Virus record (IMG/VR): IMGVR_UViG_3300021403_000006
Location: 1,139 to 65,138 of that record
Direction: 5' to 3' (one strand)
Source of the DNA: a virus
Lineage: Duplodnaviria; Caudoviricetes
Length of the DNA: 64,000 bases
Shown: one piece after another, positions 5,747-60,975 of the stretch
How positions within the stretch are numbered: the first letter of the stretch is position 1
Layout of the letters: every line of letters starts with the position of its first letter
Made by a program: the position numbers and the translations under genes
The notes under the pieces: generated by a model
What the model saw: only the letters and a program-made list of their open reading frames with translations
Database searches by the model: none
What the model was told of the DNA's origin: nothing

Positions 5747-6055
5747 TTAACGGCGACGGCCACGGGTCTTATCCATGACTGCCGTTATCATGTTGTCTCT
5801 GTGGCTTCGTAGGACTGTATCGGTGGCGTGCAACAAGGCTGCAAGTCCAGATGCGCCCAGAGCGATCAGTACCTTTGTGTCGATGCTGCGGTGGGCCACC
5901 AGCACCGTCAGTACCCCACAGCAACACAGGTTGACGAGGGTCTTCCACCAGGCCACCTGGTGCAGCCCGATCCGCCGAGTGACCTCCTTGTACACCTCGG
6001 TCAGCTTCATGGACCCGAACCCGATGAGCAGCGCGTAACCCAGATCAGCACCCAT
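5747..6055 (-). CDS. Small membrane protein, holin-like
   Basis: About three hydrophobic helices, basic C-terminus, TGATG coupling. Confidence 0.55.
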   Translation of the reverse strand: MGADLGYALLIGFGSMKLTEVYKEVTRRIGLHQVAWWKTLVNLCCCGVLTVLVAHRSIDTKVLIALGASGLAALLHATDTVLRSHRDNMITAVMDKTRGRRR

Positions 6056-25168: not shown

Positions 25169-25632
25169 TCCCTCCAGGCAGCCATGACTCGTCGTGTGAA
25201 CTTCGTCCGTTGGATTCGGGGCGGATTGTCGTTAAGCAGACCCTCCTCTTTGGCGATTGCGACGATGCCCTCGATCTGGGCACGACTCCATAGACGTCTG
25301 CCTGCGTCTCCACGAGTACCTGCGAGTGGAGGTGTCTGGTACTTCGCTTTCGGCAGCCAACCTTTTCGAATCCACGCCCTTAGGGTCACGGAGTCGCGGT
25401 GCAGGGCTTTGGCCAAGCTGCCGATCGGAAACATCTCCAGGTCGGCTTCCCGACCATCGGCGAAGCGGACGTGCTTCTTCCAGGGTCGGGCGTCCCAGGA
25501 CTGGTTCGCTTTGGCCTCGGCTCGCTCCACGGCCACACGCTCCTGCCGGGCCTGCCTGGACTCCCGCCGCTTGCGCCGGGAGCCGGGGTAGTACTCATCG
25601 AGATCGGCGAAGCTCGGCATCGGGAAGGCCAT
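25159..25632 (-). CDS. MerR-like HTH DNA-binding protein
   Basis: FPIGSLAKAL.R...TLRAW...G.LP...RRLWS. Confidence 0.8.
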   Translation of the reverse strand: MAFPMPSFADLDEYYPGSRRKRRESRQARQERVAVERAEAKANQSWDARPWKKHVRFADGREADLEMFPIGSLAKALHRDSVTLRAWIRKGWLPKAKYQTPPLAGTRGDAGRRLWSRAQIEGIVAIAKEEGLLNDNPPRIQRTKFTRRVMAAWREWL

Positions 25633-26099
25633 CAGTTCACCGGCCTGTCGGCGTCGTCCAGCAGGATCAGGCTGTAGCTGACCCGCTGGGGGAACATCCG
25701 CGACAGTTCGTCGTCAGTGATCTTCCGGTCGTAGTAGGCGGCGTGGACCTTGCCCTCGTCCAGCACCGGCACCCACTCGACCACCTCGTCCCACAGGCCC
25801 TTCTCCTTCAGGATCCGCTCGGCCACCTCGGTATTCAGCCCGGTACCCACGGAGCGCTGAGCCTTCAGCCTGAGGATCTTGCGATCGCCGACCGGCTCTC
25901 CCAGTTCCAGAAAAATAGACCCTTTGCTCGGCTCTGTTTCACCAAACCGTTGGACGATTTTTAGCAGAGCGTCTTTGCCTTCATTCAGCGAGCTTGTTAT
26001 CAGCTTTGACTGGAACTTGACGCCCCACCAACCTTCAACCTGATGGCGCAGCGTGGCCAGGTCCAAGGCCTCTTCTTCTCGCCGACGCAGTCTTGCCAT
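25632..26099 (-). CDS. Hypothetical protein
   Basis: TACCCT-N7-ATG start; TGATG coupling. Confidence 0.7.
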   Translation of the reverse strand: MARLRRREEEALDLATLRHQVEGWWGVKFQSKLITSSLNEGKDALLKIVQRFGETEPSKGSIFLELGEPVGDRKILRLKAQRSVGTGLNTEVAERILKEKGLWDEVVEWVPVLDEGKVHAAYYDRKITDDELSRMFPQRVSYSLILLDDADRPVN

Positions 26100-26493: not shown

Positions 26494-26951
26494 TGCGTAC
26501 CGTTCATCTCTACTCGATGCTCTTCGACGGCAGTCAAGATTTGTGACACCGCTGTGCTGATTTGCTCGTTGAGTTTGCCGTAGGATCGGTCCTCTTTCCG
26601 CACGGCGTTCTTCCTTGTGTACGCAGCTTGTTTCCCCAGATTCCGAAGCCTGGTCCTGGTGTCACGAGACTGCTTACGCAAGGGTCGTACCGACTGCATC
26701 TGCTCCTCGCCCGCTGGTAAGTACTGGAAGACGTTCTTCTGCTCCTCTGGATCGTATGAGCAGTTGGTGATGCATGCCCCTCGGTCCTGCGCCCAGTGAC
26801 GAACGGCGGACATATCCGTGGTCAACGAGGTGTCCACCTCTCGCTCCAAGGCGTACGCAAGTCCGGTATACGTGTACTTCACATGGGGGTGATCCCTGAG
26901 GAAGTCATAGAGTTCCTGACGTCGACTTTCGACGTAGTCGCTATCGCTCAT
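26490..26951 (-). CDS. Hypothetical, possible winged-helix protein
   Basis: LYDFL...YTY..LA..L; ATGA-coupled to the upstream regulator gene. Confidence 0.6.
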   Translation of the reverse strand: MSDSDYVESRRQELYDFLRDHPHVKYTYTGLAYALEREVDTSLTTDMSAVRHWAQDRGACITNCSYDPEEQKNVFQYLPAGEEQMQSVRPLRKQSRDTRTRLRNLGKQAAYTRKNAVRKEDRSYGKLNEQISTAVSQILTAVEEHRVEMNGTH

Positions 26952-27823
26952 CGCTGCTCCTCGGCAAGTAGTTCTGACAAGGAAGCATCGGTGATGCCGC
27001 CCTCGTTCAGATAGGCCGTCAGGAAGTCGAGCGTTGCCTGTAGTCGGTTGAGCAACCCTTCGATGGCGTCGCGGACATCTGTGGTCGGCGTCCCGCTCTT
27101 GGCCAGGACCCTCACGGCATAGTCGAACTTGTCGTTGCCGTCCTGCATGGCCTCGATGGCATCAATGGCTGTCGCTTCGCCTGGATCAGTCGCATCACGC
27201 GCTGGTGTGTTCTTCTTTCGCTTCAAGGCGATCCGAAAGTCGTTGGCGGAAACGGGATACCGGCTCCCACGCTCACGCTTCCGGGCAATCGAGGCGGTGG
27301 CCTTCATCCAGGCGATCTCGTCAATCTCGCCGTCCTCCAGTTCAGGCAGGCCAAGGTCACCAGTTCGGGCGGCCTCGCAGAGGACGGCCAAGACTTGTCG
27401 CTTCCGCTCGTCCTTCCCGGCCTCCTGGTGAGTCCTAAAAGCCGCCTCTTCAAAGCGGTCTTCCGGTGACCACGCCACTGCAACCATCCGCAAATCCTTC
27501 AGGGACGCCGGGGTGTACGGCTCTCCCGCTGGGGTCTCGACACCTTCCTCCAAGAGGCGGTCGGCTGCCTCCCTGAGCAAAGCAGCGACGTCGCTACCTT
27601 GATTTGCCGACTCCGACTTCCTGTCTCCTCCTTTTGCTTGGGCTGGGATATCTGCCGCCAGGGCTTCAGCCAGTTTCCAGGCCCCGGTTGACTCACCTCC
27701 CATGCGTTGCTGGGCTGCCTTCACGATCCGATCGAAAGCCATCGGAACCTCCTTCTCCCTGCGATGCTCTACAGCATTAGCACTCGCCAATCGTGGATTC
27801 GCCCTGCTGCGGAAAATAGTCAT
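26948..27823 (-). CDS. LmbU-like DNA-binding protein with GGDRKS motif
   Basis: AWKLAE...GGDRKS...Y...SL..LR.VA..W...R...F..H.E; likely start ATG 27742 after AGGAGG. Confidence 0.55.
   Translation of the reverse strand: MTIFRSRANPRLASANAVEHRREKEVPMAFDRIVKAAQQRMGGESTGAWKLAEALAADIPAQAKGGDRKSESANQGSDVAALLREAADRLLEEGVETPAGEPYTPASLKDLRMVAVAWSPEDRFEEAAFRTHQEAGKDERKRQVLAVLCEAARTGDLGLPELEDGEIDEIAWMKATASIARKRERGSRYPVSANDFRIALKRKKNTPARDATDPGEATAIDAIEAMQDGNDKFDYAVRVLAKSGTPTTDVRDAIEGLLNRLQATLDFLTAYLNEGGITDASLSELLAEEQR
27575..27604. repeat. Near-palindromic 30-bp element, copy 1 (intragenic)
   Basis: GAGCAAAGCAGCGACGTCGCTACCTTGATT; 28/30 identical to the reverse complement of 36400-36429. Confidence 0.85.
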
Positions 27824-34036: not shown

Positions 34037-34538
34037 CTATGTCATTCACAGCCGTGGCATCTAAAAAGGCCTACGTCCCACCCTATGGCGGTGATCGGTC
34101 ACAATCGCGCCCCTTGCGGTCCCCTGTCAAGCCCCAAATGACCAGGATTAAATAACCAGTAAATGGCTAAGCTAACGTCGATCTGTTGGGAGTATTACTC
34201 CTATATCAGCCGACGTCCCTACAGGTCCCCCGACGTCAATGACACTCCACTGAACAGTCCACTGGTTCCCCTCCACCTGTTCTGGCTCATGGCCATCCTT
34301 CCCATTCCCCACCACCCGCCGGGGGAACCGCCCTGCCTATGAAGGACACCAAGGATCCACGGGGTCCGGGTGGTGGTGCTGGGAGATGTCTACCCTGGCG
34401 TGCGGCCCCCGTCAAGCCAAACCGGAAAAAAGCTCCACCCGTTCTGCCGATGGACTGCCGACAGTGACTTGTTATTTTTTCTAACAGTTTCGCTGGGTGG
34501 TCAAGGGGCTGGATCCGCCCCCACGTAGCGTGGATTCG
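34037..34538. promoter_or_regulatory. Divergent control region (promoters, possible origin)
   Basis: About 500 bp non-coding with AT-rich patches; two leftward TTGAC-containing repeats; TAGCGT-N7-GTG before terminase. Confidence 0.6.
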
Positions 34539-36182
34539 GTGACGTACGTGGCCGATCCGGCCCTAGAAGACGATGTAACTGCATCGGACGACGACCTCTC
34601 GGAACTATCCGAGTTCGCGCCCGCCGTCCTCGATCCTAGTGATCAACAGTTTGTGGACCGCCTTGTGGATAAGGTGTGGGAGTTCACGGTCATCTTCTCC
34701 GGGGTGGAGATGTTCCCGTACCAGGCGGCGCTCGGTCGGCGCATCATCGAGTCGGTGATATCTGGGGACGGGGCCACCATCACCGGAGAGCTTTCCCGCC
34801 AATCCGGCAAGACCGAGGTGGTCGCCAACGTCGCGGCCAGCCTGATGATCTTGCTGCCCAGATTGGCGGAGATGTTCCCGGAGTTCGACCCGCTACAGAA
34901 GTTTGCCCGTGGGGTAATGATCGGCTGCTTCGCCCCGGTGGAACAGCAGGTGGAGACCCTTTTTGGCCGCGTGGTGGACCGGCTCACCAGCGAGCGGGCG
35001 CAGGAGATGCTGGAGGACCCCGACATCGATGACCAGGTGAAGCCGGGGTCGCGCCGGGTCCGGCTCAAGAAGTGCCAGAGCTTCTGTGCCATGCAGACCG
35101 CCAACCCCAGGGCCAAGATCGAGTCCAAGAGCTATCACGTCATCTTCGTTGACGAAAGCCAATCCGTAGACGAGTACGTCCTCAACAAGTCCATCACGCC
35201 CATGGGTGCCTTCTACCTGGCCACCATGGTCATGACCGGCACCCCCGACGTGACCAAAGGCGTCTTCTACAAGACGATCATGTTCAACAAGCGGCAAGAG
35301 CTACGCCGCGGTTCCAAGAAAAATCATTTTCGATTCGACTGGAAGTTCTGCGCCAAATATAACCGCAACTACGCCGCCTACATCCGGGGCGAGGCCATGC
35401 GGATCGGCGTCGACAGCGATGAGTTCCGGCTCAACTACGCCCTGGAGTGGTTGCTGGAACGGGGCATGCTCATAACCGAGACCCGGATGGACGAGCTTGG
35501 CGATCCCACCATGCCCATCCTTCCGGCCTACTGGCGCAGCCCCCTCATCGGCGGCATCGACTTCGCCCGCAAGATGGACTCCACCGTGGTCACCGTCATG
35601 TGGGTGGACTGGGACCGGCCCGATGAACTGGGCCTCTACGATCACCGGATCCTCAACTGGCTGGAGATGCACGGTGAGGAGTGGGAGGAGCAGTACTTCC
35701 GCATCGTGGACTTCCTCTCCAACTACTCCGTTGTGGCGCTAGGGGTGGACGCCCAGGGAGTTGGCGATGTTGCTGCTGACCGGCTGAAGCGCCTCCTGCC
35801 AAACATCCAGGTCGAGCCACTGTCCTCCCAGATCGGGGATCAGTCCCTCCGGTGGAAGCACCTCCAGCAGTTACTCCAGCGCGGCCTGCTGTCCTGGCCC
35901 GCCCACCCCAAGGCCCGCAAGACCAAGACCTGGAAGCGATTCCGCCAGCAGATGATCGACGTCGAAAAGAAGTACCAGGGCGCTCACCTCCTGGTGGAGG
36001 CCCCCAACGAGGCCGGGGTCCATGATGACTATGTCGACAGCCTGGCCTGCGCCGTGATCATGAGCAAGGCCCTCATGGTGCCGGAGGTCGAGATCAGCGC
36101 CAGCCCCTGGGCCTCGACGCCACGGGTCACCCGCCCAATGCGCCGCCCAAGACGCCAGACAGAGGGTGCAGGACGTCGGTGA
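34539..36182 (+). CDS. terL: Terminase large subunit
   Basis: SRQSGKT; IFVDESQ; MTGTP; GGIDFA; D..GVGD; HDDYVDSLA; GTG 34539 preferred over 34497. Confidence 0.93.
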   Translation: MTYVADPALEDDVTASDDDLSELSEFAPAVLDPSDQQFVDRLVDKVWEFTVIFSGVEMFPYQAALGRRIIESVISGDGATITGELSRQSGKTEVVANVAASLMILLPRLAEMFPEFDPLQKFARGVMIGCFAPVEQQVETLFGRVVDRLTSERAQEMLEDPDIDDQVKPGSRRVRLKKCQSFCAMQTANPRAKIESKSYHVIFVDESQSVDEYVLNKSITPMGAFYLATMVMTGTPDVTKGVFYKTIMFNKRQELRRGSKKNHFRFDWKFCAKYNRNYAAYIRGEAMRIGVDSDEFRLNYALEWLLERGMLITETRMDELGDPTMPILPAYWRSPLIGGIDFARKMDSTVVTVMWVDWDRPDELGLYDHRILNWLEMHGEEWEEQYFRIVDFLSNYSVVALGVDAQGVGDVAADRLKRLLPNIQVEPLSSQIGDQSLRWKHLQQLLQRGLLSWPAHPKARKTKTWKRFRQQMIDVEKKYQGAHLLVEAPNEAGVHDDYVDSLACAVIMSKALMVPEVEISASPWASTPRVTRPMRRPRRQTEGAGRR

Positions 36183-36384
36183 TGGCGTTGTTCATCTTCG
36201 TCGCGGCCCCGGCGATCGCCGGTTCAGCCTCGGACTCCAACTGCGACTTGGCCGACTGAGCGCCAAGCTGGGCCGAGTACGGGGTGACGGCCTGCTGAAG
36301 ATCGGCCTGGGCCGGGCCACTCGGATTGCCAGCCGTGCCCGTCGCCCTCTGCATGGACGTCTGCGCTGCCCACAGGTCGGACAC
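36127..36384 (-). CDS. Mini-protein homologous to an internal tape-measure segment
   Basis: 23/39 ungapped identities with the TMP region at ~55308-55424; TACCCT-N6-GTG start. Confidence 0.75.
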   Translation of the reverse strand: MSDLWAAQTSMQRATGTAGNPSGPAQADLQQAVTPYSAQLGAQSAKSQLESEAEPAIAGAATKMNNAITDVLHPLSGVLGGALGG

Positions 36385-36402
36385 AGCCTCAGGGTACCCA
36401 AT

Positions 36403-36426
36403 CAAAGTAGCGACGTCGCTACTTTG
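36403..36426. promoter_or_regulatory. Perfect 24-bp palindrome, putative operator (copy 2)
   Basis: CAAAGTAGCGAC|GTCGCTACTTTG. Confidence 0.8.
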
Positions 36427-36554
36427 CTCCGGGATGTTCCACGTTGAACGCTAAATGAGTTGATCACTTATATCTGAGGTACTGGGTGGTCTCATTGGGG
36501 GAAAAGGCCGTGGCTAGCCTTTTCTTTTAACCGGTCACAGAAGGAGTTTGCCCC

Positions 36555-36956
36555 ATGAGCCTTGGCCCGGAACCGCAGTACCCAGAAAGAGGTAGGTACG
36601 CCTACGACCGGACTATGGGTCCCGATCAGCCTGGCGGTCGTGGGCCTCTTCGGTTCGAAGAGGGCCTCGCCACCGACACTGATCTGCCCAGGGACTTCAC
36701 ACGAGGCATGACCGAGTTCATGCTCTCGGCACCGGGCCGGATCGGTCACGTCGATCCGAACACCCAGTTCAAGATGCCGGAGGAGACCATGGCGGAGCGC
36801 TCCCATGTTGGCTCCGCGGCCTGGATCGACGCCCCCACCATGCTCGGCGAGTTCGCCCACGGCAGCTTCACCGACCAGGCTGAGGTCCGCTACGAGGAAG
36901 TCGTCCGCAATGGGCGCATCCAGAAGAGGCGGGCACCCGAAGTCGTCAGCGACTGA
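36555..36956 (+). CDS. Phage hypothetical protein (head region)
   Basis: AAGGAG RBS; RGPLRFEEG..TDTD.P...ER.HVGSAAW motif. Confidence 0.75.
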   Translation: MSLGPEPQYPERGRYAYDRTMGPDQPGGRGPLRFEEGLATDTDLPRDFTRGMTEFMLSAPGRIGHVDPNTQFKMPEETMAERSHVGSAAWIDAPTMLGEFAHGSFTDQAEVRYEEVVRNGRIQKRRAPEVVSD

Positions 36957-48187: not shown

Positions 48188-48570
48188 CCGTAGACCTCTC
48201 GGACGTAGACGAACGCACACAGGAAGCTCCAGGCGATGAAGATCAGCCCGAAGCCCAACCGGTATTCCCATTGGGCAGCGATGAGGAAGAACCCGGCATA
48301 GCAGGCGTAGGCAGCCCACACCCCTGCCGACACGGCAATGGGCCAGGCATCCCGGTGCGGCTTCAGGAACCCTGACAGGCGGGCGAGGAGCGCCAAACTG
48401 GCAGCCCAGAACAACCCGTCCAGCACCCACTCCAACGCTGGGATCTGCGAGCTTCCCGGCCCGTGTCGGAAGCTGAAGGGGATACTGGCCCCAGCGTCCG
48501 CGATCAGAACGCAGACGATGAAGACCGGGTGGACCCGGACCTTGTGAAAAAGGACTGACTCGGTCACCAC
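48184..48570 (-). CDS. Four-TM membrane protein (holin candidate)
   Basis: Four hydrophobic segments; GTG 48567 or 48570. Confidence 0.6.
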   Translation of the reverse strand: MVTESVLFHKVRVHPVFIVCVLIADAGASIPFSFRHGPGSSQIPALEWVLDGLFWAASLALLARLSGFLKPHRDAWPIAVSAGVWAAYACYAGFFLIAAQWEYRLGFGLIFIAWSFLCAFVYVREVYG

Positions 48571-49679
48571 CAGCCCACCCATCCGGTGTTGATCGTCGTG
48601 AACTGCCAGTAGTACCCCTGCCCGGTCTTGGGGTCGACGTCCCTGGTGGGGTCGATGTTGGTGTTGGATTGGGTGCAGACGTAGCGCCGGTTCTCGTAGT
48701 CGATGAGGTCGTTTTTGTTGTAGGGACGTGTGGAGTCCCACAGGCCCTGGTAGGTGTACATCTGCTGGGTGACATCGATGGCTGGCATTTCCCGTTGCGG
48801 CCAGGTGATGTCGTCGTACTCCTTCGAGCGATAAAGAGGAACGAGCCTCTTCGTCGTCCTAGAAACTCGCCGGAGACGAGACATGGTGATGCGGTACAGC
48901 CCCACGCCCAATGCCGAGGACAGCATCATGTACTGCTGCTGAAGCTGGCCGATCATGGCCGTGATCTGCTGGAAGGTCTGGCTGATCGGGATGGTCACGC
49001 CGTCCGGGGTGTGAACGTCGTGCTGCTGCGCCGCCCCCACGGCCATGTCCCACAGGGCCATGATCGTGACCAGGATCGAGATGGGGTACTCCTCGACCTC
49101 GGAGATCATCATGGGCTGCGGTGAGCCATAGCTCGTTGGCTGCCCAGCAGAGTTCAGTGGAGGTGGCCCCGGCGGCGGTGGGTACCCCACATCGATGTCG
49201 TCGGTCGGGTCCGTCCCGTAGGTGTGCTGGATGTAGGCGGTCCGGACGTAGAGGTCAAGCTCAGAGGGCAGATAATCCCGGTAGAACGTGCCCTGAGCCA
49301 CCACCAGGATTCCTTGGGCCGGAGCCTGCTGGAACGTGATGATCCCGCCATGGTCGTCCAGGAAGAAATCCTGGCCGATGACCTGGCTCTGGGTGCCTCC
49401 CGGCGTGGTGTCGGTGAGGACTACCTGGAGACTGGCGCGCTCGATGTTCTCGACCGGCAGTTCGAACCGCCAGGCCACACCGCTGCACGTCTGCCGGACC
49501 AGGAAAGGACGGGGCAGGTCGCGCAGACGCAGTCGAGCCATCTGCCCGATGCGCTGTGTGGACGAAGGGTTGACGGGCGGGTAGAGCAGCCCCTGATCGG
49601 TATCGGGGTACTGGCCCGGTTGACCAGCCGTGACGTCATAAGGATTGGGCAGCCCTGAAATCGGCCCGGTCATCGACAC
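48564..49679 (-). CDS. Head-tail adaptor/neck protein with C-terminal carbohydrate-binding-like repeat
   Basis: R.RL.D; EEYP...L....ALW...PDGV.IP..Q.; W.....Y...D.I.Y....Y.C. Confidence 0.6.
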   Translation of the reverse strand: MSMTGPISGLPNPYDVTAGQPGQYPDTDQGLLYPPVNPSSTQRIGQMARLRLRDLPRPFLVRQTCSGVAWRFELPVENIERASLQVVLTDTTPGGTQSQVIGQDFFLDDHGGIITFQQAPAQGILVVAQGTFYRDYLPSELDLYVRTAYIQHTYGTDPTDDIDVGYPPPPGPPPLNSAGQPTSYGSPQPMMISEVEEYPISILVTIMALWDMAVGAAQQHDVHTPDGVTIPISQTFQQITAMIGQLQQQYMMLSSALGVGLYRITMSRLRRVSRTTKRLVPLYRSKEYDDITWPQREMPAIDVTQQMYTYQGLWDSTRPYNKNDLIDYENRRYVCTQSNTNIDPTRDVDPKTGQGYYWQFTTINTGWVGWW

Positions 49680-50926: not shown

Positions 50927-52516
50927 ATGGCAACTCTCACCCGTCCCGGCGTTTACATCGACCTGTCGTCGTTCCCCACGTACGCCAGCGCCACGCCGGG
51001 GGTCGCGGCGGCGTGCTTCGTGGGGTCTGCGCCCAGGGGACCGCTCACGCCGACCTTCGTGACCTCGTGGAAGGACTTCACCCGCCAGTACGGAGGCTTT
51101 GAGACCGCCTACCCGCCCAGCGCCCTGCACCTAGCGGTCTTCAGCTACTTCTCGGCGGGTGGTACCACCGCCATCATCATCCGGGCCTATCGCCTCGATA
51201 CCTCAGGACCAGTAGCCGCGGACTTCACTTTCGATGACCAGGCCACAACCACTCCGCAGCCCACCCTTCAGATTGCCGCGAAGAACCCTGGACAGTGGGG
51301 CAACAGCGTCTACGTCGACATCGTCCCCGGCACGATTCTTCCTCCCACCGGTAGTGCCAACACCACACCACTGAGCTTCAGCGTGATCGTGAAGTACCAA
51401 GGCACCAACCCGGTGAACATAGTGGAGCGCTGGGAGAACGTGTCGATGGTGCCCGGCTCCACCAACGCCGGTCAGAACAACTACGCCGTAGACGTCATCA
51501 ACAATCCCTACGCCGGGTCCACCTTCATCACCGTCACCGACGTCGGCATCCTCAACGCCACTCCCACACCTGCCCCCCAAAACAACCCGGCTGCGACGAC
51601 GGCGAGTCAGGCGCTGGAGGACGGTGACGACGGTAGCTCGCTGACCCTCACCGACATCACCACCGCGGTCCAGCAACTGGACCAGTATCCCGACCAACCG
51701 TTCGTGCTGAACCTTCCCGGTATCAGCGACGCCACCACGCTCGGTCCGGTCATCGGCTACGCCCAGAACCGGGGTGACGTCTTCCTCGTGATTGACTGCC
51801 CAGCACAAATGTCTGATCCGGCGACTGTGGTGTCCACGGCTCAAGGCTTAGGAGCCACAGCGCAGGCTGCCTTCTACTACCCCCAGGTGCAGATCTCTGA
51901 TCCGTACTCGCCAGTCGCTGGTCGTACCCGCTTGATCCCCCCCGGCGGGTTCGTGGTCGGTCAGTACATCTCCACCGACATGTCCAGAGGAGTGGCCAAG
52001 GCCCCAGCCGGTCTGGGGGCATCGCTACTCGGTGTCACGGGATTGGAGTTTGTCCTCACCAACGATGAGCAAGGCGTCCTGACTCAGGGCAACGTCAACT
52101 GTCTCGTATCCATCCCCGGCTCTGGGGTGGTGATCTGGGGAGCGCGCACCCTGTCTCCCTACCTGGTCACCCGCTACGTGTCGGTGGAGCGCACGATCAT
52201 CTACCTCCAGACCGAACTCGTGGCGCTCTCCAAGTTCGCTGTCTTCGAACCCAACGACTGGGTGCTGTGGAACCAGATCGTGTCGGTCATCAATCAGTTC
52301 TTGACCGCTTTCTGGCAGAGCGGGGGGCTGCAAGGTCAGAGCGCATCCGACGCCTTCTACGTCACCTGCGATGGCACCAACAACACACCGATGACCATCC
52401 AGCAGGGCGTCGTCAACATCGAAGTGGGCGTCGCGCTCCAGTACCCCGCCGAGTTCGTCGTCATCAGCATCGGTCAGTGGGCCGGTGGTCAGAACGTCGC
52501 GGTCACCACGTCATAA
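50927..52516 (+). CDS. Contractile tail sheath protein
   Basis: RPGVY; FVG...RGP; KAPAG; WGARTL; FAVFEPN; YPAEFV. Confidence 0.96.
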   Translation: MATLTRPGVYIDLSSFPTYASATPGVAAACFVGSAPRGPLTPTFVTSWKDFTRQYGGFETAYPPSALHLAVFSYFSAGGTTAIIIRAYRLDTSGPVAADFTFDDQATTTPQPTLQIAAKNPGQWGNSVYVDIVPGTILPPTGSANTTPLSFSVIVKYQGTNPVNIVERWENVSMVPGSTNAGQNNYAVDVINNPYAGSTFITVTDVGILNATPTPAPQNNPAATTASQALEDGDDGSSLTLTDITTAVQQLDQYPDQPFVLNLPGISDATTLGPVIGYAQNRGDVFLVIDCPAQMSDPATVVSTAQGLGATAQAAFYYPQVQISDPYSPVAGRTRLIPPGGFVVGQYISTDMSRGVAKAPAGLGASLLGVTGLEFVLTNDEQGVLTQGNVNCLVSIPGSGVVIWGARTLSPYLVTRYVSVERTIIYLQTELVALSKFAVFEPNDWVLWNQIVSVINQFLTAFWQSGGLQGQSASDAFYVTCDGTNNTPMTIQQGVVNIEVGVALQYPAEFVVISIGQWAGGQNVAVTTS

Positions 52517-52525
52517 GGAGGACAC

Positions 52526-53137
52526 ATGACCAGTCGCCCGCTGAACTCAGATCCACTGCGGAACTTCCGCTTCAACGTCAACATCAACCACCCAAACATC
52601 CCGACCCTGCCTCGCATGGGCTTCATGGCCATGTCCGGCCTGGCCGTCAACAACGAAGTCATCCCTTACCGCGAAGGCGGTAACAACACCACGACCCGCA
52701 AGATGCCCGGCCAATCCGACTTCGGCCCCATCACCCTCACCAGAGGGTTCATGGCCGCACCAGTAATGACAGCCGGTGCAGTCGGCACCGGCATCGGGAC
52801 CAACGAGATCTACAAGTGGTTCAGCCAGATCTTCGCGGTCAACGTGGGCAAGGGCTTCGGCAGCCCCACCACCAACTTCCGCGTCGGTGTGACCATCGAT
52901 GTCCTCTCTCACCCCATCACCACCACCGGGTACGCCGCCGGGGTCGACAACCCGCCTCCGATCAAAGCTCGCTTCCTGGTCTACAACGCCTGGCCCATGG
53001 GCTACTCCTTCTCCGACCTGGAGGCTGGCGGCAACGCCGTCTTCATCGAGAACCTGACCCTGGCCCACGAGGGCTGGGCGCTTCTTACCGCCAACCAGGA
53101 TCCCTCCAGCTTCCTGTCTAGCTCAGCGACGGTATGA
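52526..53137 (+). CDS. Tail tube protein (T4 gp19-like)
   Basis: DPLRNFRF; YREGG.N...K.PG; ITL.RG; NAWP; L.HEG. Confidence 0.95.
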   Translation: MTSRPLNSDPLRNFRFNVNINHPNIPTLPRMGFMAMSGLAVNNEVIPYREGGNNTTTRKMPGQSDFGPITLTRGFMAAPVMTAGAVGTGIGTNEIYKWFSQIFAVNVGKGFGSPTTNFRVGVTIDVLSHPITTTGYAAGVDNPPPIKARFLVYNAWPMGYSFSDLEAGGNAVFIENLTLAHEGWALLTANQDPSSFLSSSATV

Positions 53138-53955
53138 CGGTCTTCGAACCATCGCCGATCGATCCACTAGCTGAACCCGACGCCGCCAACGAGAGGGTCA
53201 AGAGCCTTACGTCGGCTCCGATCCCTTTGATGAAGCCGCCGACCGGCAACCGCACTCTGCTACCGGGCGGTTACCTGGATGACGAAGGCAACGTCCACCG
53301 TGACGCTCGCATCCGGGAGATCAACGGGTCCGACGAAGAAGCCATGGCTCGTGAGCTACGCAACCCGACCATCAACATCCCAAAGGTGGTCGACCTGCTT
53401 CTCAAGCGCACAGTGGAAGCGGTTGGAACAATCGACCCGGTCCCACCAACGGTCCTCAATGACATGCTGACCGGTGATCGGGCCGCGCTCATGCTGGCCG
53501 TACGGATCCTCACCTTCGGTCACGACTGGGAGGTGCCGGACTTTCCCTGCCGCATGTGCGGAGAGACCTTCGGCACCATCGTGGAACTGGACTCGATTCC
53601 CATCAAGAAGCTCGACAACCCCATGGTCCAAGAAGTCGACGTCGAGTTACGCAACGACCACACCGCCACCGTTGTCCTCCTAACCGGTGGCGTCCAGCTT
53701 GAGATGGTTGGCGACGGGAACCGGACCGGCCCGGAAGAAGCCACCATCGCTATCGACCGCTGCATCCGCAAGCTCGACGGCATGCCCGTAGCCGGACCCG
53801 TCGCGCAAAAGATGAGCATGGCTGACCGGCGCAAGATCGTCGCCGCCATGAGTGGATCTCAGCCCGGCCCCCAGATGGAGGAGGTGATGGTCACATGCAC
53901 CGAATGCGGAAGGGAGGCCAACTACACCGTCAGCCTGGTCGACTTATTTCGCTAA
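53134..53955 (+). CDS. Tail assembly chaperone (T4 gp26-like, Zn-binding)
   Basis: LPGG; REING.DEE; GDR..L...VR..TFG; two CxxC; lies between tube and TMP. Confidence 0.8.
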   Translation: MTVFEPSPIDPLAEPDAANERVKSLTSAPIPLMKPPTGNRTLLPGGYLDDEGNVHRDARIREINGSDEEAMARELRNPTINIPKVVDLLLKRTVEAVGTIDPVPPTVLNDMLTGDRAALMLAVRILTFGHDWEVPDFPCRMCGETFGTIVELDSIPIKKLDNPMVQEVDVELRNDHTATVVLLTGGVQLEMVGDGNRTGPEEATIAIDRCIRKLDGMPVAGPVAQKMSMADRRKIVAAMSGSQPGPQMEEVMVTCTECGREANYTVSLVDLFR

Positions 53956-54103
53956 CACCATCACCCCCTTCGACCTCCTCTACCTCCAGTACCAGCGGAT
54001 CTCGGAACGGTTCCCCGGTTGGGGTCTGTCCGAGATCAAAGCCATGCCCCACTTCGAACGTCGCCATTGGGTCGACGTAGTACTGAGCAACGTCGATGGC
54101 TGA
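53948..54103 (+). CDS. Frameshift-accessed C-terminal extension of the tail chaperone
   Basis: +1 frame FANTITPFDLLYLQYQRISERFPGWGLSEIKAMPHFERRHWV...; no start codon upstream of the motif. Confidence 0.7.
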   Translation, partial: FANTITPFDLLYLQYQRISERFPGWGLSEIKAMPHFERRHWVDVVLSNVDG

Positions 54104-57068
54104 CGGTTACGGTGCCGGGCTGTTTGACTCCCAAGGCCCCAAGGATTTTGCCTCCGCGGTCGGGGGTATCTCGACCGAACTGAACTCGGTCAAGGGGGCC
54201 TTCACCTCCTTCGGTACTGAGGCCAAGAGCGCCCTGTCGGGCGTCTCCAGCGCCGTCGATGGCCTGATCCAAAAGCTGAGCCAAGTCACTAGCCAGCTAC
54301 AGCAGGGCCTCACCGCGGCTGGCGGAGGCGGCGGTGGTATGGGTCAACCCACGTCTCCCAAGACCAGCGGAGGCGGCGGGAGCGGACAGACCGGCTCCAA
54401 CGTCAACGCCCAGGGCTGGTCACCTGACGCTGCGCCCAAACCAAACGCCGGAACCGGTGCCGGTGCGCCCCTGACCGGGATGGAGCAGAACACGGCTGGT
54501 GACGGGCCGACTCAGTTCCCCAAGCAGGAACCAGGCAGCGCCCAGCCCGGCTCTACTCCTTCCCAGACCGGTGGCTTCCTGGGGATGGGTCAGGGCAGTG
54601 CGTCCACCATGGGGCAACGGGCTATGCAGTCCATGATCCCTGCCGCCATCGGCGCAGCCACTAATGCGGTTGGGGGCCTGACGAGTACGGCGGTGCAAGG
54701 GGCCAGCATCGGTCAGATGTACGCCCCGGCCTTCGGCGTCAGTTCCCGCAGCCTCTATGTAATGCCGAAGGGCATCCTGGCCCAGAACCCCCAGGACTAC
54801 GCTCAGTCCAACTACTACGCCATGCAGAACCTGGGCATGGCCCCAGGCACCCAGAACTGGTCCTCCATCATGGGACCCGGCGGTGGTCTCAACCAGTTGA
54901 TGACGCTGGATCCCGGTCTAACCCGCCAGCAAGCCGCCCAGAGCTTCGGCAACATGATGGCCCCGCAGACCTTGAACCAGCAGATGGCGTTCGGTCTCAA
55001 CTTCAGCCCCGGCGGGAAGATGGAGACGCCACAGCAGCAGTACCAGCAAATGTTTCAGCGGCTCACCATCAACGTGCCTGGTGGCAAACCCACCGGGGCA
55101 CAAGTCGAAGCCTGGCTACGTCCTGGTGGTCCCTGGTCATCGAACCTGGCCTCGGCGGGCTGGCAGCCAGGTAGTGCGGAGTACCAGGGCTTCGTGAACT
55201 ACGCCCTCACCCAGGTGGGAATGCAGGGCCAAGGCAAGTCACTGGTCGGGTCGAATATCAACCTCGGTACGACGTCCGGTGCCCAGCAAACCCCACTGGG
55301 TAACACCCCGGCCTACGCTCAGCTTCAAGCCCAGAGCGCACAGTCCCAGGTCGAGACCCAAGCCGAACCGGCTCTGGCCCAAGCCGCTAAAGACCTCAAC
55401 GAGGCCGCGACCCAACTCCTCCACGCTGTCAACCCGTTGGCCAGTCTCTTCGGTGGCGGCGGGCCAGGAGGAATGGTCGGATCCATCGTCGGCATGGGCG
55501 GTATGTATATGGGCGGCAAGCTCCTGGGCAAAGTGGGCGGCAAGGTTCTCGGCTCAGTTGGCGGCAAGGTTCTCGGATCTTTTGGCGGCAAGCTCGGCAA
55601 GCTCGGTGATCTCCTGGGTGGCGGCACTGCCGCCGAGGCTGAAGGAACGGTCGCCAAGACGGCAGGGAAGGGGATGTTCGGCAACCTCCTCAAGGGAGGT
55701 CTTGGCAATCTGTTTAAAGGCGGGGCGGGTGCTGCGGGAGCAGAGGCAGGAGAAGTTGGTGGTATAGAAGCAGCCGGTGCAGGCCTCGACGCCACAGGTG
55801 TAGGTCTGCCGGTTGGATTGGCGTTGGGGGCTGTCGGTTTAGGTCTCGGCTTCCACAAGCAGATCGGCAGCTTCATTGGTGGACTCTTTGGTCACCACAA
55901 GAAAAAGTCCACCGCCGCACCAGATGGTACTGAAACCGGTGCGAGCGATGACGTGTCCTCCCTCCTGGCTTCTAAGCCTGCCCCCAACAGTCTCCTGGCC
56001 TGTCTGACTTCACAGGTCAAGGCCAACGACAACACCGTCATCAGCGTCCTGATGAACAAGTCATCGGCTATGCCCAGAATCGGTGGCGGAGGGGCGATGG
56101 GTGGCGGTCGTATACAAACCATGAGCGCCTTTAGCCCCCTTGGCACAGGCGGCGGAGGCGGAGGCGGCGGAGGCGGAGGGGGAGGCGGAGGCGGAGGCGG
56201 CGCATCTGGGAGTGCCACGGGGTCTGCTCCTTCGCAGCCTTACACCTGGACCTACAAGAGCGGCGGCATCGGCCCCCAAGACATGTCTGGGATGTTCATG
56301 ACGACATCCTCCAGTGGCGGTGGCGGCGGTGGTGGCGGTGGTGGTGGCGGTGGTAATGGCGGCAGTTCTGGCCCAACAACCCTCAGTGGCAGCGGCAACG
56401 TCCAACAGGCGTACAACTATTTCCTTAGTAAGGGCCTCAAGGACTACATGGCGGCTGGCATCGTAGGCAACTTGGCCCAAGAGTCCGGGGTGAACCCGGC
56501 GTCCACTTCGCCAGGTGCAATGGGCATTGCTCAGTGGACACCACCGACTGCGCTGCAAGCCTGGGCCAAACAGCAAAACCGTAGTGCCACCGACATGTCA
56601 ACTCAGTTGGACTTTCTGTGGATGCAGATGAACTCGACCGAGAAGGGGGCGCTCGTGGCCTTGCAGGCCTCGACCGACGCCGCCTCTGCCGCCCAGGCAT
56701 TTGAGCAGCAGTACGAACGGGCCGGAATACCGATGATGCAGAATCGGGTCAAGTACGCCCAGACCGTTCTGTCAACCAAGGGAGCCAGCTACGCCCGTGG
56801 CTCCCAGTTGATCGACCGCACCCAGCTTGCCCTCCTGCATGCCGGTGAAGCGGTGGTGCCTGCCGCCGACAACTACTCCGCCTCCCCTTACAACAAGAAC
56901 GGAGCAGGCAACGGCGGTGGAAACACCGTTCACCTCAACTTCAAAGCGGGAGCCGTTGTGCTGCAAGTGCCGCCCTCTTCCTCCCAGCAGGACATGGAGA
57001 ACCTTGCCAACCAGTTCGTCGCGGCCATCTCCAAGCCCGCTGTCCTCGCCGGAGTCAGGTCCACGTAA
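54096..57068 (+). CDS. Tape measure protein with phage tail lysozyme domain
   Basis: Ala/Gly/Gln-rich; AAGIVGNL.QES..NP...GIAQW...QLDF...YER; ALLH.GE.VVP. Confidence 0.9.
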   Translation: MADGYGAGLFDSQGPKDFASAVGGISTELNSVKGAFTSFGTEAKSALSGVSSAVDGLIQKLSQVTSQLQQGLTAAGGGGGGMGQPTSPKTSGGGGSGQTGSNVNAQGWSPDAAPKPNAGTGAGAPLTGMEQNTAGDGPTQFPKQEPGSAQPGSTPSQTGGFLGMGQGSASTMGQRAMQSMIPAAIGAATNAVGGLTSTAVQGASIGQMYAPAFGVSSRSLYVMPKGILAQNPQDYAQSNYYAMQNLGMAPGTQNWSSIMGPGGGLNQLMTLDPGLTRQQAAQSFGNMMAPQTLNQQMAFGLNFSPGGKMETPQQQYQQMFQRLTINVPGGKPTGAQVEAWLRPGGPWSSNLASAGWQPGSAEYQGFVNYALTQVGMQGQGKSLVGSNINLGTTSGAQQTPLGNTPAYAQLQAQSAQSQVETQAEPALAQAAKDLNEAATQLLHAVNPLASLFGGGGPGGMVGSIVGMGGMYMGGKLLGKVGGKVLGSVGGKVLGSFGGKLGKLGDLLGGGTAAEAEGTVAKTAGKGMFGNLLKGGLGNLFKGGAGAAGAEAGEVGGIEAAGAGLDATGVGLPVGLALGAVGLGLGFHKQIGSFIGGLFGHHKKKSTAAPDGTETGASDDVSSLLASKPAPNSLLACLTSQVKANDNTVISVLMNKSSAMPRIGGGGAMGGGRIQTMSAFSPLGTGGGGGGGGGGGGGGGGGGASGSATGSAPSQPYTWTYKSGGIGPQDMSGMFMTTSSSGGGGGGGGGGGGGNGGSSGPTTLSGSGNVQQAYNYFLSKGLKDYMAAGIVGNLAQESGVNPASTSPGAMGIAQWTPPTALQAWAKQQNRSATDMSTQLDFLWMQMNSTEKGALVALQASTDAASAAQAFEQQYERAGIPMMQNRVKYAQTVLSTKGASYARGSQLIDRTQLALLHAGEAVVPAADNYSASPYNKNGAGNGGGNTVHLNFKAGAVVLQVPPSSSQQDMENLANQFVAAISKPAVLAGVRST

Positions 57069-58387
57069 TGCCCACCCAGAACCCATCCGACGTTCAGAAG
57101 CCCGGTGATCAGGCCCTGGCGATAGCGAAGCAGCAGATCGGCAAGCCGTATGTCTACGGGGCGACGGGACCCAATAGCTTCGACTGCTCCGGGCTGATGT
57201 ACTACGCCTACCTGCAAGGGGCTGGCATCAACGTGGGCCGTGACACCACCTCACAATGGAACAACCAAACCTCTCTGTACACCGTCTTCGACGCCTTCAA
57301 CGCCCAGGGAAAGACACTCTCCCAAGACCAACTGGAAGACGGCGACCTCCTGCTCTACTTCCAGCCGGGCAACAGTGGACCCAACGCCCACGTCAAGATG
57401 TACGCCGGAGGCGGGCAGACCATCGAGGCTCCGTACACCGGAGCAGTCGTCACCTACAACCCGGTGGACCTGGTGGGCGACACCGCGGAGCCTTTCCATG
57501 GTGTGAAGCGGACGACTGGAAGTAGTGGAGGCGGAAGCACAACCGGCGGCGGAGGAGCCAGCACTGGCGGTAACTCTGGGCAAGGGAGCGGGAGCGGCAA
57601 TAACCCCACCGGGCTGACCGCCCAGCAAATGCAGGACATGGGCAAACAAATCGCCGCCCTGAAAGACCCTCGCAGCAATCTACCCTTCTCGGCCAAGTTC
57701 CAAGGCCAGGCAACCCCAGGTTCTGCTGGCAGCTTCACCATGAAGCTGGGCGGATCGAACTACATGCCAGCCACCCAACTCGTGCGGGGCGGCATGATGG
57801 AACTGGTAGCGAAGCAGTTCAAGTGCTACTTCATGATGAACCCGCAGCAGATCTCGGTCGAGGCGGGCATCAACACCTCGCAACTCTCCCCCTTCCAGCA
57901 GGACTCCTCGGTCTGGCAGTCCGGCGGATACTTTGTCACCAACCAGACCGTCAGCTTCACCGTGTACTTCAACCGGATGTACGAGGTGTGGGGAGGCGAC
58001 GTTCAGGGACCCTCCCAGGAAGGCTGTCGGTGGGACACCCGTGCCCTAGAACGCCTCATGGGCATCTTCGACGCGGTGGCAGCCCACGGCGGGAATACCG
58101 GCCTCGGCACCAACGGATGGGGTGAATGGCCTGCCAGCATGATGCCGTTACAGATCGTTTTCGGAGGCCAGAACTCCCTCCAGTTCCAAGGCGTGTTGAG
58201 TTCCTTCGATTACGTCTTCACCATCTTTGACGCCAACATGATCCCGGTTGAGGCCTACGCCGACATCACTGTCATGCGGGTCTACAACCCCACCCAATCC
58301 GGAGCCGACCTGACCAACGCCCTGGTCACGATGACCGGGCAAAAGGGTCCCACGAACCTACCGGGCAAGCGGGCCTTTACGAGATGA
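57068..58387 (+). CDS. NlpC/P60 hydrolase fused to a tube-initiator domain
   Basis: GKPYVYGATGP.SFDCSGL...HV.MY.G.G..IEAP; FM.NP..I; F...M.P. Confidence 0.88.
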   Translation: MPTQNPSDVQKPGDQALAIAKQQIGKPYVYGATGPNSFDCSGLMYYAYLQGAGINVGRDTTSQWNNQTSLYTVFDAFNAQGKTLSQDQLEDGDLLLYFQPGNSGPNAHVKMYAGGGQTIEAPYTGAVVTYNPVDLVGDTAEPFHGVKRTTGSSGGGSTTGGGGASTGGNSGQGSGSGNNPTGLTAQQMQDMGKQIAALKDPRSNLPFSAKFQGQATPGSAGSFTMKLGGSNYMPATQLVRGGMMELVAKQFKCYFMMNPQQISVEAGINTSQLSPFQQDSSVWQSGGYFVTNQTVSFTVYFNRMYEVWGGDVQGPSQEGCRWDTRALERLMGIFDAVAAHGGNTGLGTNGWGEWPASMMPLQIVFGGQNSLQFQGVLSSFDYVFTIFDANMIPVEAYADITVMRVYNPTQSGADLTNALVTMTGQKGPTNLPGKRAFTR

Positions 58388-58659
58388 TCGTCAGCGGCTC
58401 CCGTTACGCAGGCCAGCCTGTGGTCAGCGTCCCCACCGACGCGGCGGGCGACACTGATATCGCTGTCTTCGGCCCGACCCCCACCCTGCCCGCCACCTTC
58501 GCCTACTACACCGTGGTTCAGGGAGACCGTCTCGACATCATCGCCAACAACCTGTACGGCGTCCCGGACTACTGGTGGCGGATCGCGAACGCCAACCCTG
58601 AGATCTTCTACCCCGATGACCTGGTCGTCGGCTCGATCATTCGGATCCCATCGTCATGA
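58384..58659 (+). CDS. LysM/P2 gpX-like baseplate protein
   Basis: YTVVQGDRLD.IA...YG....WW.IA.AN. Confidence 0.9.
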   Translation: MIVSGSRYAGQPVVSVPTDAAGDTDIAVFGPTPTLPATFAYYTVVQGDRLDIIANNLYGVPDYWWRIANANPEIFYPDDLVVGSIIRIPSS

Positions 58660-59843
58660 TCAGAGCCAACGCCGTCCCCATCTTCGACCCTGGTGGTCGT
58701 GCTGCTCAGAAGACCGTCAACACCGTCAAGGTCTTGATGACTGAGAACATGCACGACACCGCCATCATCACCCTACGCGGCGAGTCAACCGATGCCCCGG
58801 AGCTACAACCAGGCACCCCCGTGCAGATGCAATACGGCTGGTCCACCATCGACATGGACTACTTCTACGGCTACGTCGACCACATCGAAACCCACTACGA
58901 CCGGGCAGTCGGTGACAGTTCCACCCTAGAAGACGTGGTTTGCCTGGGAGCCAGCTACTCCCTCAAAGACCCATTCATCGGTGGCTGGACCAACGTGCAG
59001 GCCTCCACCCTGGTGACGCAGATCTCCAAGCAATACTTCCTGTCATCGGTGGTCGAAGACGATGACACGGTCTGGCCACAGTTGGCCGCGCCTGGAGACT
59101 CTGCCTGGTGCTTCCTGACCCAACTGGCCAGCAAGACCGGCTACAGCCTGGCCTGTAACAAGACCAGGGTCCGCTTCGTCTCTGTCGACCTCGCCATGAA
59201 GCGGTACACGCCCACCATGCCGGTCTTCTATTCACGCAACACTGCCGGTACCACGGCCCAGCAATCGATCACCAAGTTCCAGGCCCTCACAGGTGAAGCG
59301 CTCGCCCTTGCTGGTCACACCAAGGCAACACGACAAGTTAGCGGTCTCGACCTCCGCACCGGCCAGATCATCAGCGCTACCAACGACGCCTCCGATCCCA
59401 CACCGTTGGGCCAAAACTCCAACTACCCCTTCTTCAGTCAACAGGTCTCCACCAGCGTGGTCTCTAGCCAGGGACACGCCCACGCGGTACTGGCCGGGAT
59501 GGCTCAGAACAACCGCTTTGCCTTCCAGGCCACCGCAACCCTGGGCGGCCTCACCGCGGTCAAACAAGGCATGCCGATCGTCATCTCCGGCATCGACAGC
59601 AACAACGACGGCACCTGGTGGGTCCAAGAAGTCACCCACAAGATCAAGTCACAGAGCTATTCCCTGGACGTCTCCCTCGGCCGCGACGCCACCGGGGACA
59701 ATGGCACCTACCCGGTCCAGGGCACCTCCGTGGTCTTCACGCCCATAAATCCTGTCGGTTACGTCGTCGCCAACATCCCACCCACCAAGCTCGTCAACAA
59801 CCGCTGGCGAGCCGCCCACGCCTCCAATGTCGGCATCCGTTAG
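58656..59843 (+). CDS. Baseplate hub protein (P2 gpD-like)
   Basis: G.PV...YG; S.W.FL..LA..TGY; G.W.V..VTH. Confidence 0.85.
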
Positions 59844-60966
59844 CCCCGCCGCGGCCCCGACCCCGCCGACGCCCCCGCACTACGGGGGTGTGTACGCGGC
59901 CAAGGTTTATTCCATCACGGATCCCAATCATCTCAGGCGGATCCAGATGTATATCCCTCAGGTCTTCGGTGACAGCCCGCTCAAGATCTGGGCACCGCCG
60001 ATCGCCCAAAGCACCAATACCCCAGTAGTCGGCAGCGTCGTCTGGTGCATCTTCCAGGGTGGGGACCCGGCCTACCCCACCTACATGCCTCAACAGGTAG
60101 GGGGAGGGTCCGCAGGCCCGACCGGACCCTCTGGCCCAACCGGACCCTCCGGTCCACAAGGCATCACCGGAGCAGGAGGAACCACAGGCGCGACCGGAGC
60201 CACAGGAGCAACGGGTCCCACCGGCCCGTCAGGCGGGCCTCCTGGCCCCACAGGGCCTACCGGACCCACCGGGCCGATCTCGACAGTTCCTGGTCCCACC
60301 GGGGCGACTGGAACTGTTGGGTCGACCGGAGCCACTGGGCCAACGGGTGCCACCGGTCCTCTCGGAGGACCCACTGGCCCAACCGGCCCACCAGGTCCAC
60401 CCGGCCTCACCTACATCCAGACCATCACCGCCCCCACCGCGGCAGGATCGCCCTACACGGTCACCCACAATCTGAACACCCACTACCCCCTGATAGAGCT
60501 ATGGGACGCCGTCAATGGCCACATGCTGGTGACCAACGCGTCCGTGGTGGACGCCAACAACATCACCCTCAGCTTCCTCCAGAACCCTCCCCACGACGTC
60601 ACCGTGGTGGTCACAGGCGGCGCTACGGGCATGACCGGTCCCGCCGGGCCGACCGGCCCTACCGGTGCCACCGGCCCGTCTGGTGGCCCTCCAGGTCCAA
60701 CCGGAGCCACTGGAGCCACTGGATCAATCGGTCCCACTGGTCCGCAAGGCCCAGCCGGTGACGCAGGCACGACATTCTTCGTATGGAACCAGGCCTCCGC
60801 CGCCACCACCTGGATGATCAGCCACACCCTGGGCTTCAACCCGAACGTATCGGTAGTCGACTCCACCGGCATGCAGATCTTCCCCGGCGATCTCAAGTAC
60901 CTCGACGTTGCCACCATCCAACTTGACTTCTCGGCTGCCGTAGGTGGCCTGGCGTACCTGAGCTAG
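59827..60966 (+). CDS. Baseplate spike OB domain fused to collagen repeats
   Basis: YGGVY.A.V....DP....RI...IPQV...WA...P.VG..VW..F.GGDP.YP, then Gly-X-Y tracts. Confidence 0.85.
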
Positions 60967-60975
60967 GAGCGACTG

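Follow-up and report, generated by a model that had tools for sequence, protein, structure and literature searches.

Why should a phage carry, on the strand opposite to its terminase gene, a small gene that resembles an internal piece of its own tape measure protein (TMP)? The question arises from a 64,000-nucleotide stretch of DNA (the window), taken from positions 1,139 to 65,138 of the IMG/VR virus record IMGVR_UViG_3300021403_000006, whose source is an uncultured soil myovirus. The gene, referred to here as the mini gene, occupies 36127..36384 on the minus strand, consists of 85 codons from a GTG followed by a stop, and lies between the large terminase gene terL and a conserved gene encoding 133 amino acids (aa), g133. 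As compared across related loci, the mini gene is more than a TMP copy and is composed of two modules, a family motif at the N-terminus and an optional TMP-like tail. The tail is tentatively read as a competitive mimic of a TMP helix with a role in conflict, either in entry exclusion or as a decoy.

The minus-strand gene and its tape measure homology

The longest frame of the mini open reading frame (ORF) spans 36127..36405 (-) and encodes 92 aa from a TTG in the same frame at 36405. In relatives the protein begins at the equivalent M-S-D-(L)-W, and the GTG at 36384 was therefore taken as the start in the window, giving the 85 aa first proposed. Judged by sequence, 36127-36384 (-) is a real 85-codon gene. 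The original prediction had described a stand-alone antisense gene with a start of its own, located after terL; the minus-strand ORF exists, its start is conserved in relatives, and its 3' end overlaps that of the convergent terL (34497..36182, +; Terminase_6C) by 56 nucleotides (nt) at 36127..36182. The overlap is kept in relatives (56 nt in L012 and 44 nt in L007), and one and the same DNA encodes the Arg-rich C-terminal tail of terL on one strand and the last part of the mini gene on the other (36127-36182; likewise in L021, L023, L031 and others). GC content by codon position is 0.65/0.55/0.83, similar to surrounding genes.

Homologues were collected by a word-index search, which returned six mini proteins (71-88% identity, all 75-89 aa), and by an exhaustive profile search, which returned 23 proteins: 13 small (48-94 aa), 7 TMP-like (564-1108 aa) and 3 repetitive, the last being set aside. 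TMP-like matches aligned at approximately residues 390-470, or at 119-171 in the 564-aa protein, and a first viral scan with the single mini protein as query had returned TMPs only. The gene is predicted, with an uninterrupted frame, across relatives at 42-88% identity. As would be expected of a functional gene from the original prediction, a syntenic ORF with its frame kept was found between terL (convergent) and g133 (divergent) in L007, in L012 and in 36 of 37 loci of the close clade defined below. The mini protein had no match in the Pfam, PHROG, NCBIfam and PADLOC libraries or among 50,697 deposited phage genomes. Its sole match in 185,579 species' genomes lay off-frame of an unrelated gene on a contig of a metagenome-assembled genome and was dismissed as chance. 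The ESM Atlas yielded only viral hypothetical clusters (0.86-0.89, below the level that counts), with one weak T7_gp14 lead covering 28% of one cluster.

The TMP gene (54096..57068, +; 990 aa) comes after those for the sheath, the tube and a chaperone-like protein and carries a Phage_lysozyme2 domain at residues 768-892; PHROG tape-measure families match the same region. Its segment homologous to the mini protein covers residues 375-459 (55218..55472, +), with a 39-codon core at 55305..55421. The corresponding tail of the mini gene (36130..36285, -) is predicted to form helix-Pro-helix and has its 39-codon core at 36169..36285; these coordinates bear out the claimed separation of 19 kb and the opposite strands. 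The reported 23/39 ungapped identities in the core were reproduced exactly, at 63% nucleotide identity. BLASTP of the mini protein against the TMP gave 13/25 identities (E 9e-6), and a search of the record itself gave E 8.9e-11. The Smith-Waterman score was 133, as compared with 44.6 +/- 6.2 for shuffled sequences (maximum 77; 0 of 2000 reached 133). When the TMP was compared with the whole window by tblastn, the mini gene took sole second place (24/40, E 5.7e-7) and the next best match had E 1.0. Profile-profile alignment of 13 mini proteins with 8 TMPs gave a probability of 98.6% (E 5.3e-16), aligning mini residues 17-92 with TMP residues 375-459. On these alignments, the C-terminal ~50 residues of the mini protein are a true homologue, or paralogue, of TMP residues ~404-455.

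Judged by its invariant columns, the copied segment ranks with the best-conserved parts of the TMP family, and the translation places it directly before a Gly-rich hydrophobic stretch, as the original prediction stated. TMP-invariant residues (T-P, Q-L, S, E-P, A, A, N, A, L, P-L, G) are mostly retained in the mini family, and the second helix of the tail is amphipathic. Two long runs of poly-Gly, of about 16 and 14 residues, flank the central region of the TMP. The mini protein is small and acidic (8.4 kDa, pI 4.6), with a polar N-terminus and no membrane segment (maximum Kyte-Doolittle value 1.05 over a 19-residue window). An AlphaFold2 monomer built from a 23-row alignment placed helices at residues 2-14, 24-32 and 34-83 with a predicted local distance difference test score (pLDDT) of 55. 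For TMP residues 187-459 (8 rows) pLDDT was 45, and the packing of the helix on the preceding domain was not resolved by the model.

Differences among mini orthologues are concentrated at third codon positions (e.g., 17/14/40). Whole-gene ratios of nonsynonymous to synonymous substitution rates (dN/dS) were 0.14, 0.26 and 0.16, and the tail core gave 0.16-0.37 in 10/10 pairs within the window's subclade. By these ratios (0.14-0.37 overall), the mini gene is under purifying selection. The gene could in principle be a functionless, decaying inverted duplication of part of the TMP gene, as the dN/dS of ~0.5 and the 63% nucleotide identity between the mini and its own TMP core, together with loss of the tail in many relatives, would allow. 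Against such decay stand the open and called frame, the orthologue dN/dS and a conserved promoter and start. Given the low dN/dS and the kept frame, this explanation fails for the window's subclade, and it is considered extremely unlikely; the neutral decay that would have undone the original prediction was not what the ratios indicated.

A constant motif, variable tails and the terL-g133 gap

Relatives were drawn from the best 80 of 284 g133 relatives in IMG/VR. In the close clade (L017-L053; terL 79-89% identical), 36 of 37 loci carry a small minus-strand ORF bearing W-A-x-x-T-S-M-x-R-A in the gap between terL and g133; the remaining locus, L043, does not span the gap. Three of the 37 are contigs already known as L007, L012 and L014, and several loci are mutually identical. 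In the window the motif reads W-A-A-Q-T-S-M-Q-R-A-T-G (codons 5-16; 36337..36372, -), and in the form W-A-x-Q-T-S-M-Q-R-A-T-G it is the most conserved part of the mini family. Its codons switch synonymously (Ser TCN/AGC, Arg AGG/CGN), which indicates that the peptide is what is conserved. A profile of the motif matched the mini ORF and nothing else in the 64-kb window. Derivation of the motif from the TMP was ruled out with a 28-sequence N-terminal profile, which aligned to the TMP family with an hhalign probability of 0.1%.

A TMP-like tail was found in only 14 of the 36 relatives, the other 22 having a Pro/Ser-rich tail or other sequences, so that at least three kinds of tail occur. The claim that the gene copies a TMP segment thus holds for the C-terminal part, a true homologue where present, and does not extend to the TMP-unlike N-terminus or to the majority of relatives. 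Since the tail is absent in 22 of 36, the core function of the family cannot depend on TMP likeness. In tail-less relatives, the Pro/Ser-rich end of the mini protein is the antisense reading of the terL tail.

Tail type was mapped by Fitch parsimony on a FastTree tree of terL (33 leaves), which was rooted with L054, this leaf then being pruned; loci without a full terL were left out. Eight changes were required, hence at least 8, on a tree in which about half of the nodes had support >= 0.9. Shuffled tail labels required a mean of 10.9 changes, and 50 of 1000 shuffles did as well as 8. A-type and N-only loci occur as sister pairs on this tree. One locus, L025, encodes at 3659-3900 (-) a TMP-like tail without the Glu-Pro kink (A-M-G-G instead), and its sister locus L021 is tail-less; the L025 tail may have been caught in decay.

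These patterns raise the possibility that function resides in the N-terminal motif and is unrelated to the TMP. The TMP-like helices would then be only one tail among several interchangeable ones, serving as a spacer, an oligomerising module or a helical one, and would at some time have been acquired from the TMP gene or had in common with it. Such a view draws on a motif that is constant where tails are of at least three kinds and change type 8 times on the terL tree, on the lack of TMP likeness in the motif itself, and on the degenerate look of the L025 tail, with the E-P of its kink gone. It has to contend with purifying selection on the tail in all 10 pairs of the window's subclade, with retention of most TMP-invariant positions, and with the finding, given next, that a mini tail matches its own TMP best in two of three genomes. 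It is the main alternative to the mimic and is regarded as possible, on the doubtful side.

Six genomes show both the mini and the TMP locus. In another sequence, G001, the TMP is present and terL is absent from the sequence, so the missing mini gene there is uninformative. The TMP helix was present in 6/6 genomes (diverged in G009) and the TMP-like tail of the mini protein in 3/6; by this count the mini protein is not an obligate partner of the TMP. Over a 40-residue core, the mini of G000 had 23 matches to its own TMP and 17-20 to others, and that of G007 had 21 and 15-19, so that the own TMP was the best-matching one for 2/3 minis. The true mini-TMP pairing ranked top of the 6 possible pairings (64 vs 51-61). 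Co-variation of the mini with its own TMP is, on these counts, only suggestive. Core identities were 16-23 between minis, 15-23 between minis and TMPs, and 20-24 between TMPs; as minis are no closer to each other than to TMPs, or than TMPs are to one another, the core is not cleanly split into two old clades. Shared constraint, co-evolution or occasional conversion could each account for the lack of a clean split.

The same counts bear on a role in tail assembly, in which the mini protein, acting in trans as a chaperone or as a modulator of length or assembly, would pair with the TMP helix or cover the neighbouring hydrophobic stretch up to the time of tube polymerisation. Homology to a conserved TMP helix beside a hydrophobic region, the amphipathic second helix and the position of the gene inside the structural gene region would suit such a helper. 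An essential assembly role is made less likely by the contrast between a helix kept in 6/6 TMPs and a tail kept in 3/6 minis, and the tail is also lacking in 22 of 36 relatives. The gene is in addition absent from the distant clade and from cultured Streptomyces phages, and its variable slot is 19 kb from the tail genes, with the gene on the opposite strand. An assembly helper is accordingly held to be unlikely.

The slot is bounded downstream of terL by g133 (36555..36956, +), which is divergent from the mini gene and has 284 relatives in IMG/VR, always just after terL. g133 is 47% identical to proteins of the Streptomyces phages BRock and Alone3 and had no match in Pfam, PHROGs, NCBIfam or PADLOC; g489 likewise had none in Pfam, PHROGs or PADLOC. 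The mini gene was absent from the distant clade (L054-L096; terL 52-59% identical), where the gap holds a plus-strand ORF of 136-139 aa or larger inserts, and from cultured Streptomyces phages including Alone3, in which 46 nt separate terL from the g133 homologue. Absence of the mini gene there, together with the other inserts, marks the gap as a variable accessory slot. With a tail in only 14 of 36 relatives, its lability, and a TMP helix kept in every genome examined, the gene looks like an accessory part of fast turnover and not like an essential part of tail assembly.

A gene of 249-300 aa lies directly upstream of the mini gene, with stop and start overlapping, in L027 (3162-3911, -), L042 and L050, so that the two form a two-gene minus-strand cassette in three loci. 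The sole match of the 249/300-aa gene was phrog_3170 (function unknown), with none in Pfam, NCBIfam or PADLOC. L087 likewise carries a phrog_3170 gene in this gap, there on the other strand, and L014 has a copy at 1035-1937 (+).

Start signal and genome context

A putative -10 box, TACCCT (36391..36396, -), stands 6 nt before the GTG and would imply a leaderless mRNA. The full arrangement, TACCCT-N6-GTG, lies at 36382..36396 (-), where the original prediction had placed a leaderless-type start. A single match to it within the window is no more than chance, and the weight given to it comes from its conservation in relatives. Among 30 distinct upstream regions (the window and 29 loci), 27 have TANNNT 6-7 nt before an in-frame ATG or GTG, and 17 of the 27 have exactly TACCCT-N6; the exceptions are L020, L042 and L045. 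An in-frame stop within 12 codons upstream was found in 12 regions, and the hexamer cannot be coding there. The option that TACCCT simply encodes Tyr-Pro was ruled out by these in-frame stops in or before the hexamer and by its invariant T at the third codon position despite a third-position GC content of ~0.8. In M. tuberculosis, -10 boxes of the form TANNNT with their centre 7-12 bp ahead of the start site are common, as are leaderless mRNAs, and the spacing of the mini gene's box agrees with this (PMC3898074). With a conserved -10 box at 6-7 nt from the start codon, as would suit a leaderless mRNA, the predicted leaderless-type start has good comparative support, and the sequence context of the mini gene fits that of an independent transcription unit.

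The hexamer-plus-start arrangement precedes 4 of the 63 predicted genes of the window: the mini gene, terL at codon 15, 25632..26099 (-) and 48564..49679 (-). It is thus taken to mark the starts of transcription units and to carry no information on timing. A reading of the box as a host-type promoter for early expression was dropped, since terL and two other genes share it. The likely true start of terL is the GTG at codon 15 (34539), preceded by TAGCGT-N7; terL ORFs of relatives start M-T-Y-V. At this GTG and at the two minus-strand genes, TANNNT lies 7 nt before the in-frame start, and all three are candidate leaderless transcription-unit starts. The -35 region of the putative mini promoter is covered by a perfect 22-bp palindrome (36404..36425), part of a stretch of 36 nt that L007 and L012 lack. 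The coding region of the ORF at 26948..27823 (-) contains a near copy with 2 mismatches (27579..27600), and one DNA contig of run X2 matching this copy also aligns at 36400-36434. The palindrome could represent a short duplication or, alternatively, a site of the operator type.

Transcription from the TACCCT box would run into the last 56 nt of terL, and the transcript, with the ORF secondary, could thereby act as antisense or transcriptional-interference control of the terminase, which would not exclude a function of the protein. No terminator-like site was found on the minus strand after the mini stop, the 3' end of the gene overlapping terL. Control of this kind would account for a convergent overlap kept at 44-56 nt (window, L007, L012) and for a conserved -10 box belonging to the gene. 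Conservation at the level of the peptide, seen in the Ser/Arg codon switches and the low dN/dS, tells against it, and it is judged very unlikely.

CheckV estimated completeness at 55% for the 65-kb viral record containing the window, and complete relatives of the phage are 114.5 and 117.5 kb long. Its nearest cultured kin are the Streptomyces phages BRock and Alone3, and the nearest among deposited phages are these two together with pSt2308, GiJojo and LuckySocke, with 47% protein identity for g133 and ~65% nucleotide identity for terL, the latter over 309 bases only (12% of the query). DNA runs containing the stretch are labelled as soil (X1-X5, X7) and mine (X6) metagenomes; of these, X2 and X3 were aligned to it. 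The plus strand encodes terL, portal, capsid protein, sheath, tube, a chaperone-like protein of 273 aa (53134..53955), the TMP and an NlpC/P60 hub protein. The minus strand encodes, at 6-34 kb, PolA, a DnaB-like helicase, primase, an SNF2 helicase, RecA and two baseplate proteins. The baseplate J-like and P2 gpI-like genes (6055-12082, -) are ~40 kb from the plus-strand tail genes (50927-63800; sheath, tube, TMP and hub). The structural region is broken by a further minus-strand block at ~43.9-49.7 kb, and a 379-aa protein encoded downstream of the TMP (59827-60966, +) has long collagen-like G-x-y repeats.

Possible roles and known systems

With a dispensable tail, fast turnover and an accessory slot, a conflict role is the most likely one, in preference to an essential part in assembly. 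Under the preferred reading of the tail as a competitive mimic, it would stand in for the TMP segment and join the TMP's own helix bundle, or it would occupy a host or phage partner that the TMP segment binds. The outcome would be a block on DNA entry by related superinfecting phages or, alternatively, titration of a TMP-directed host factor, and the N-terminal motif would supply a second, TMP-independent interaction. In a more specific version, considered rather doubtful, the mini protein would be a soluble TMP-helix mimic made from its own promoter that jams entry of related superinfecting phages or blunts a helix-recognising host factor. Its tail would then be an interchangeable 'warhead' on an N-terminal adaptor motif, swapped and lost repeatedly in an arms race.

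Several observations weigh against the mimic. The mini protein has neither a signal peptide nor a membrane segment, and the route by which a cytoplasmic protein would reach an incoming TMP is unexplained. Both monomer models had low confidence, with pLDDT 55 for the mini protein, which was too uncertain for a fold search, and 45 for TMP 187-459. Across the family, conservation is strongest in the N-terminal motif and not in the TMP-like tail, which is lacking in 22 of 36 relatives. Co-variation comes from 3 genomes (p = 1/6 at best), in one of which, G006, the mini core had 20 matches to its own TMP and 17-23 to others. Promoter type, being shared with terL and two other genes, gives no timing. 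Metatranscriptome contigs (from two soil runs of different studies) covered g133 only (36617-36835) and were identical to its interior; the absence of RNA contigs over the mini gene is no evidence either way on expression, and the missing RNA cover is counted here among the points against. Lastly, no integrase was found among 30 window ORFs scanned and no prophage copy of the mini gene in 185,579 species' genomes. Both make a lysogen-expressed exclusion gene unlikely, and with no sign of lysogeny any exclusion would have to act in lytic infection.

TMPs are emerging as a meeting point of the phage with entry-blocking and defence proteins; in lambda, the TMP is a contact point for SNIPE and ManYZ (PMC13190303). 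Were the copy to compete with the TMP, the phage would have a novel means of excluding rivals or escaping defence, and the TMP segment before the hydrophobic stretch would be marked as a functional contact site. The locus also amounts to a clean natural experiment: its 12-residue motif and its candidate leaderless promoter are conserved, and 8 or more swaps or losses of the tail have occurred within a set of close relatives. Full-text searches of the literature on TMPs with exclusion, anti-defence or duplication found no stand-alone gene for a TMP segment, which does not prove that none has been published.

One close relation is to the phage's own TMP family, whose residues ~404-455 (T-P...Q-L...E-P...L-N...P-L...G-G) are homologous to the mini tail. 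TMPs are long proteins encoded between chaperone and hub genes, whereas the mini protein has 85 aa as compared with 990, is encoded elsewhere (between terL and g133) on the other strand, and has an N-terminal motif of its own. Homology is confined to mini residues ~17-85 and TMP residues 375-459; the TMP's N-terminal coiled coil, 190-400 domain, hydrophobic Gly-rich region, lysozyme domain and C-terminal region have no counterpart. As in morons, presence is patchy between conserved neighbours (36/37 in the close clade; absent from L054-L096 and Alone3), and the conserved TANNNT-N6/7-start on the strand opposite to the flanking operon would be the gene's own promoter; the unlike base composition of morons is not seen.

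HK97 gp15, TP-J34 Ltp and T5 Llp are small superinfection-exclusion or entry-blocking proteins acting via the TMP or the receptor, and T5 llp is also opposite in direction. HK97 gp15 is reportedly an entry-blocking protein linked to the TMP. What the mini gene has in common with these is its small size and accessory nature, a start signal of its own and a place within or next to structural genes; a link to TMP-dependent entry is conceivable. They differ in being membrane proteins or lipoproteins without TMP homology, and features of their kind (membrane anchor, signal peptide or lipobox) are missing from the mini protein.

T4 internal proteins (IPI-III) combine a conserved short N-terminal signal with a highly variable remainder and are encoded at hypervariable loci. 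The mini gene is similarly a small accessory gene with a conserved N-terminus and a variable remainder; unlike the T4 proteins, it shares its motif with no second protein of the 64-kb window. Short motifs in mycobacteriophage TMPs were reportedly also seen in small stand-alone proteins by Pedulla et al. in 2003, and duplications of units within TMPs are said to occur. Both resemble the mini gene in that TMP modules are shared with other genes. The modules in those cases are common to the TMP and host proteins or recur inside the TMP, whereas the mini gene is a separate phage gene with a putative promoter of its own.

The idea nearest to the proposed mimic is assembly mimicry by SaPI1 CpmB, which shares a helix with the scaffolding protein of phage 80alpha. 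CpmB is encoded by a satellite and is directed against the capsid of its helper, whereas the mini gene resides in the same genome as its original and copies a tail or entry protein. Like CpmB, the mini protein is a small protein with a copy of a short helix of a large assembly protein, and could compete for the site of that helix.

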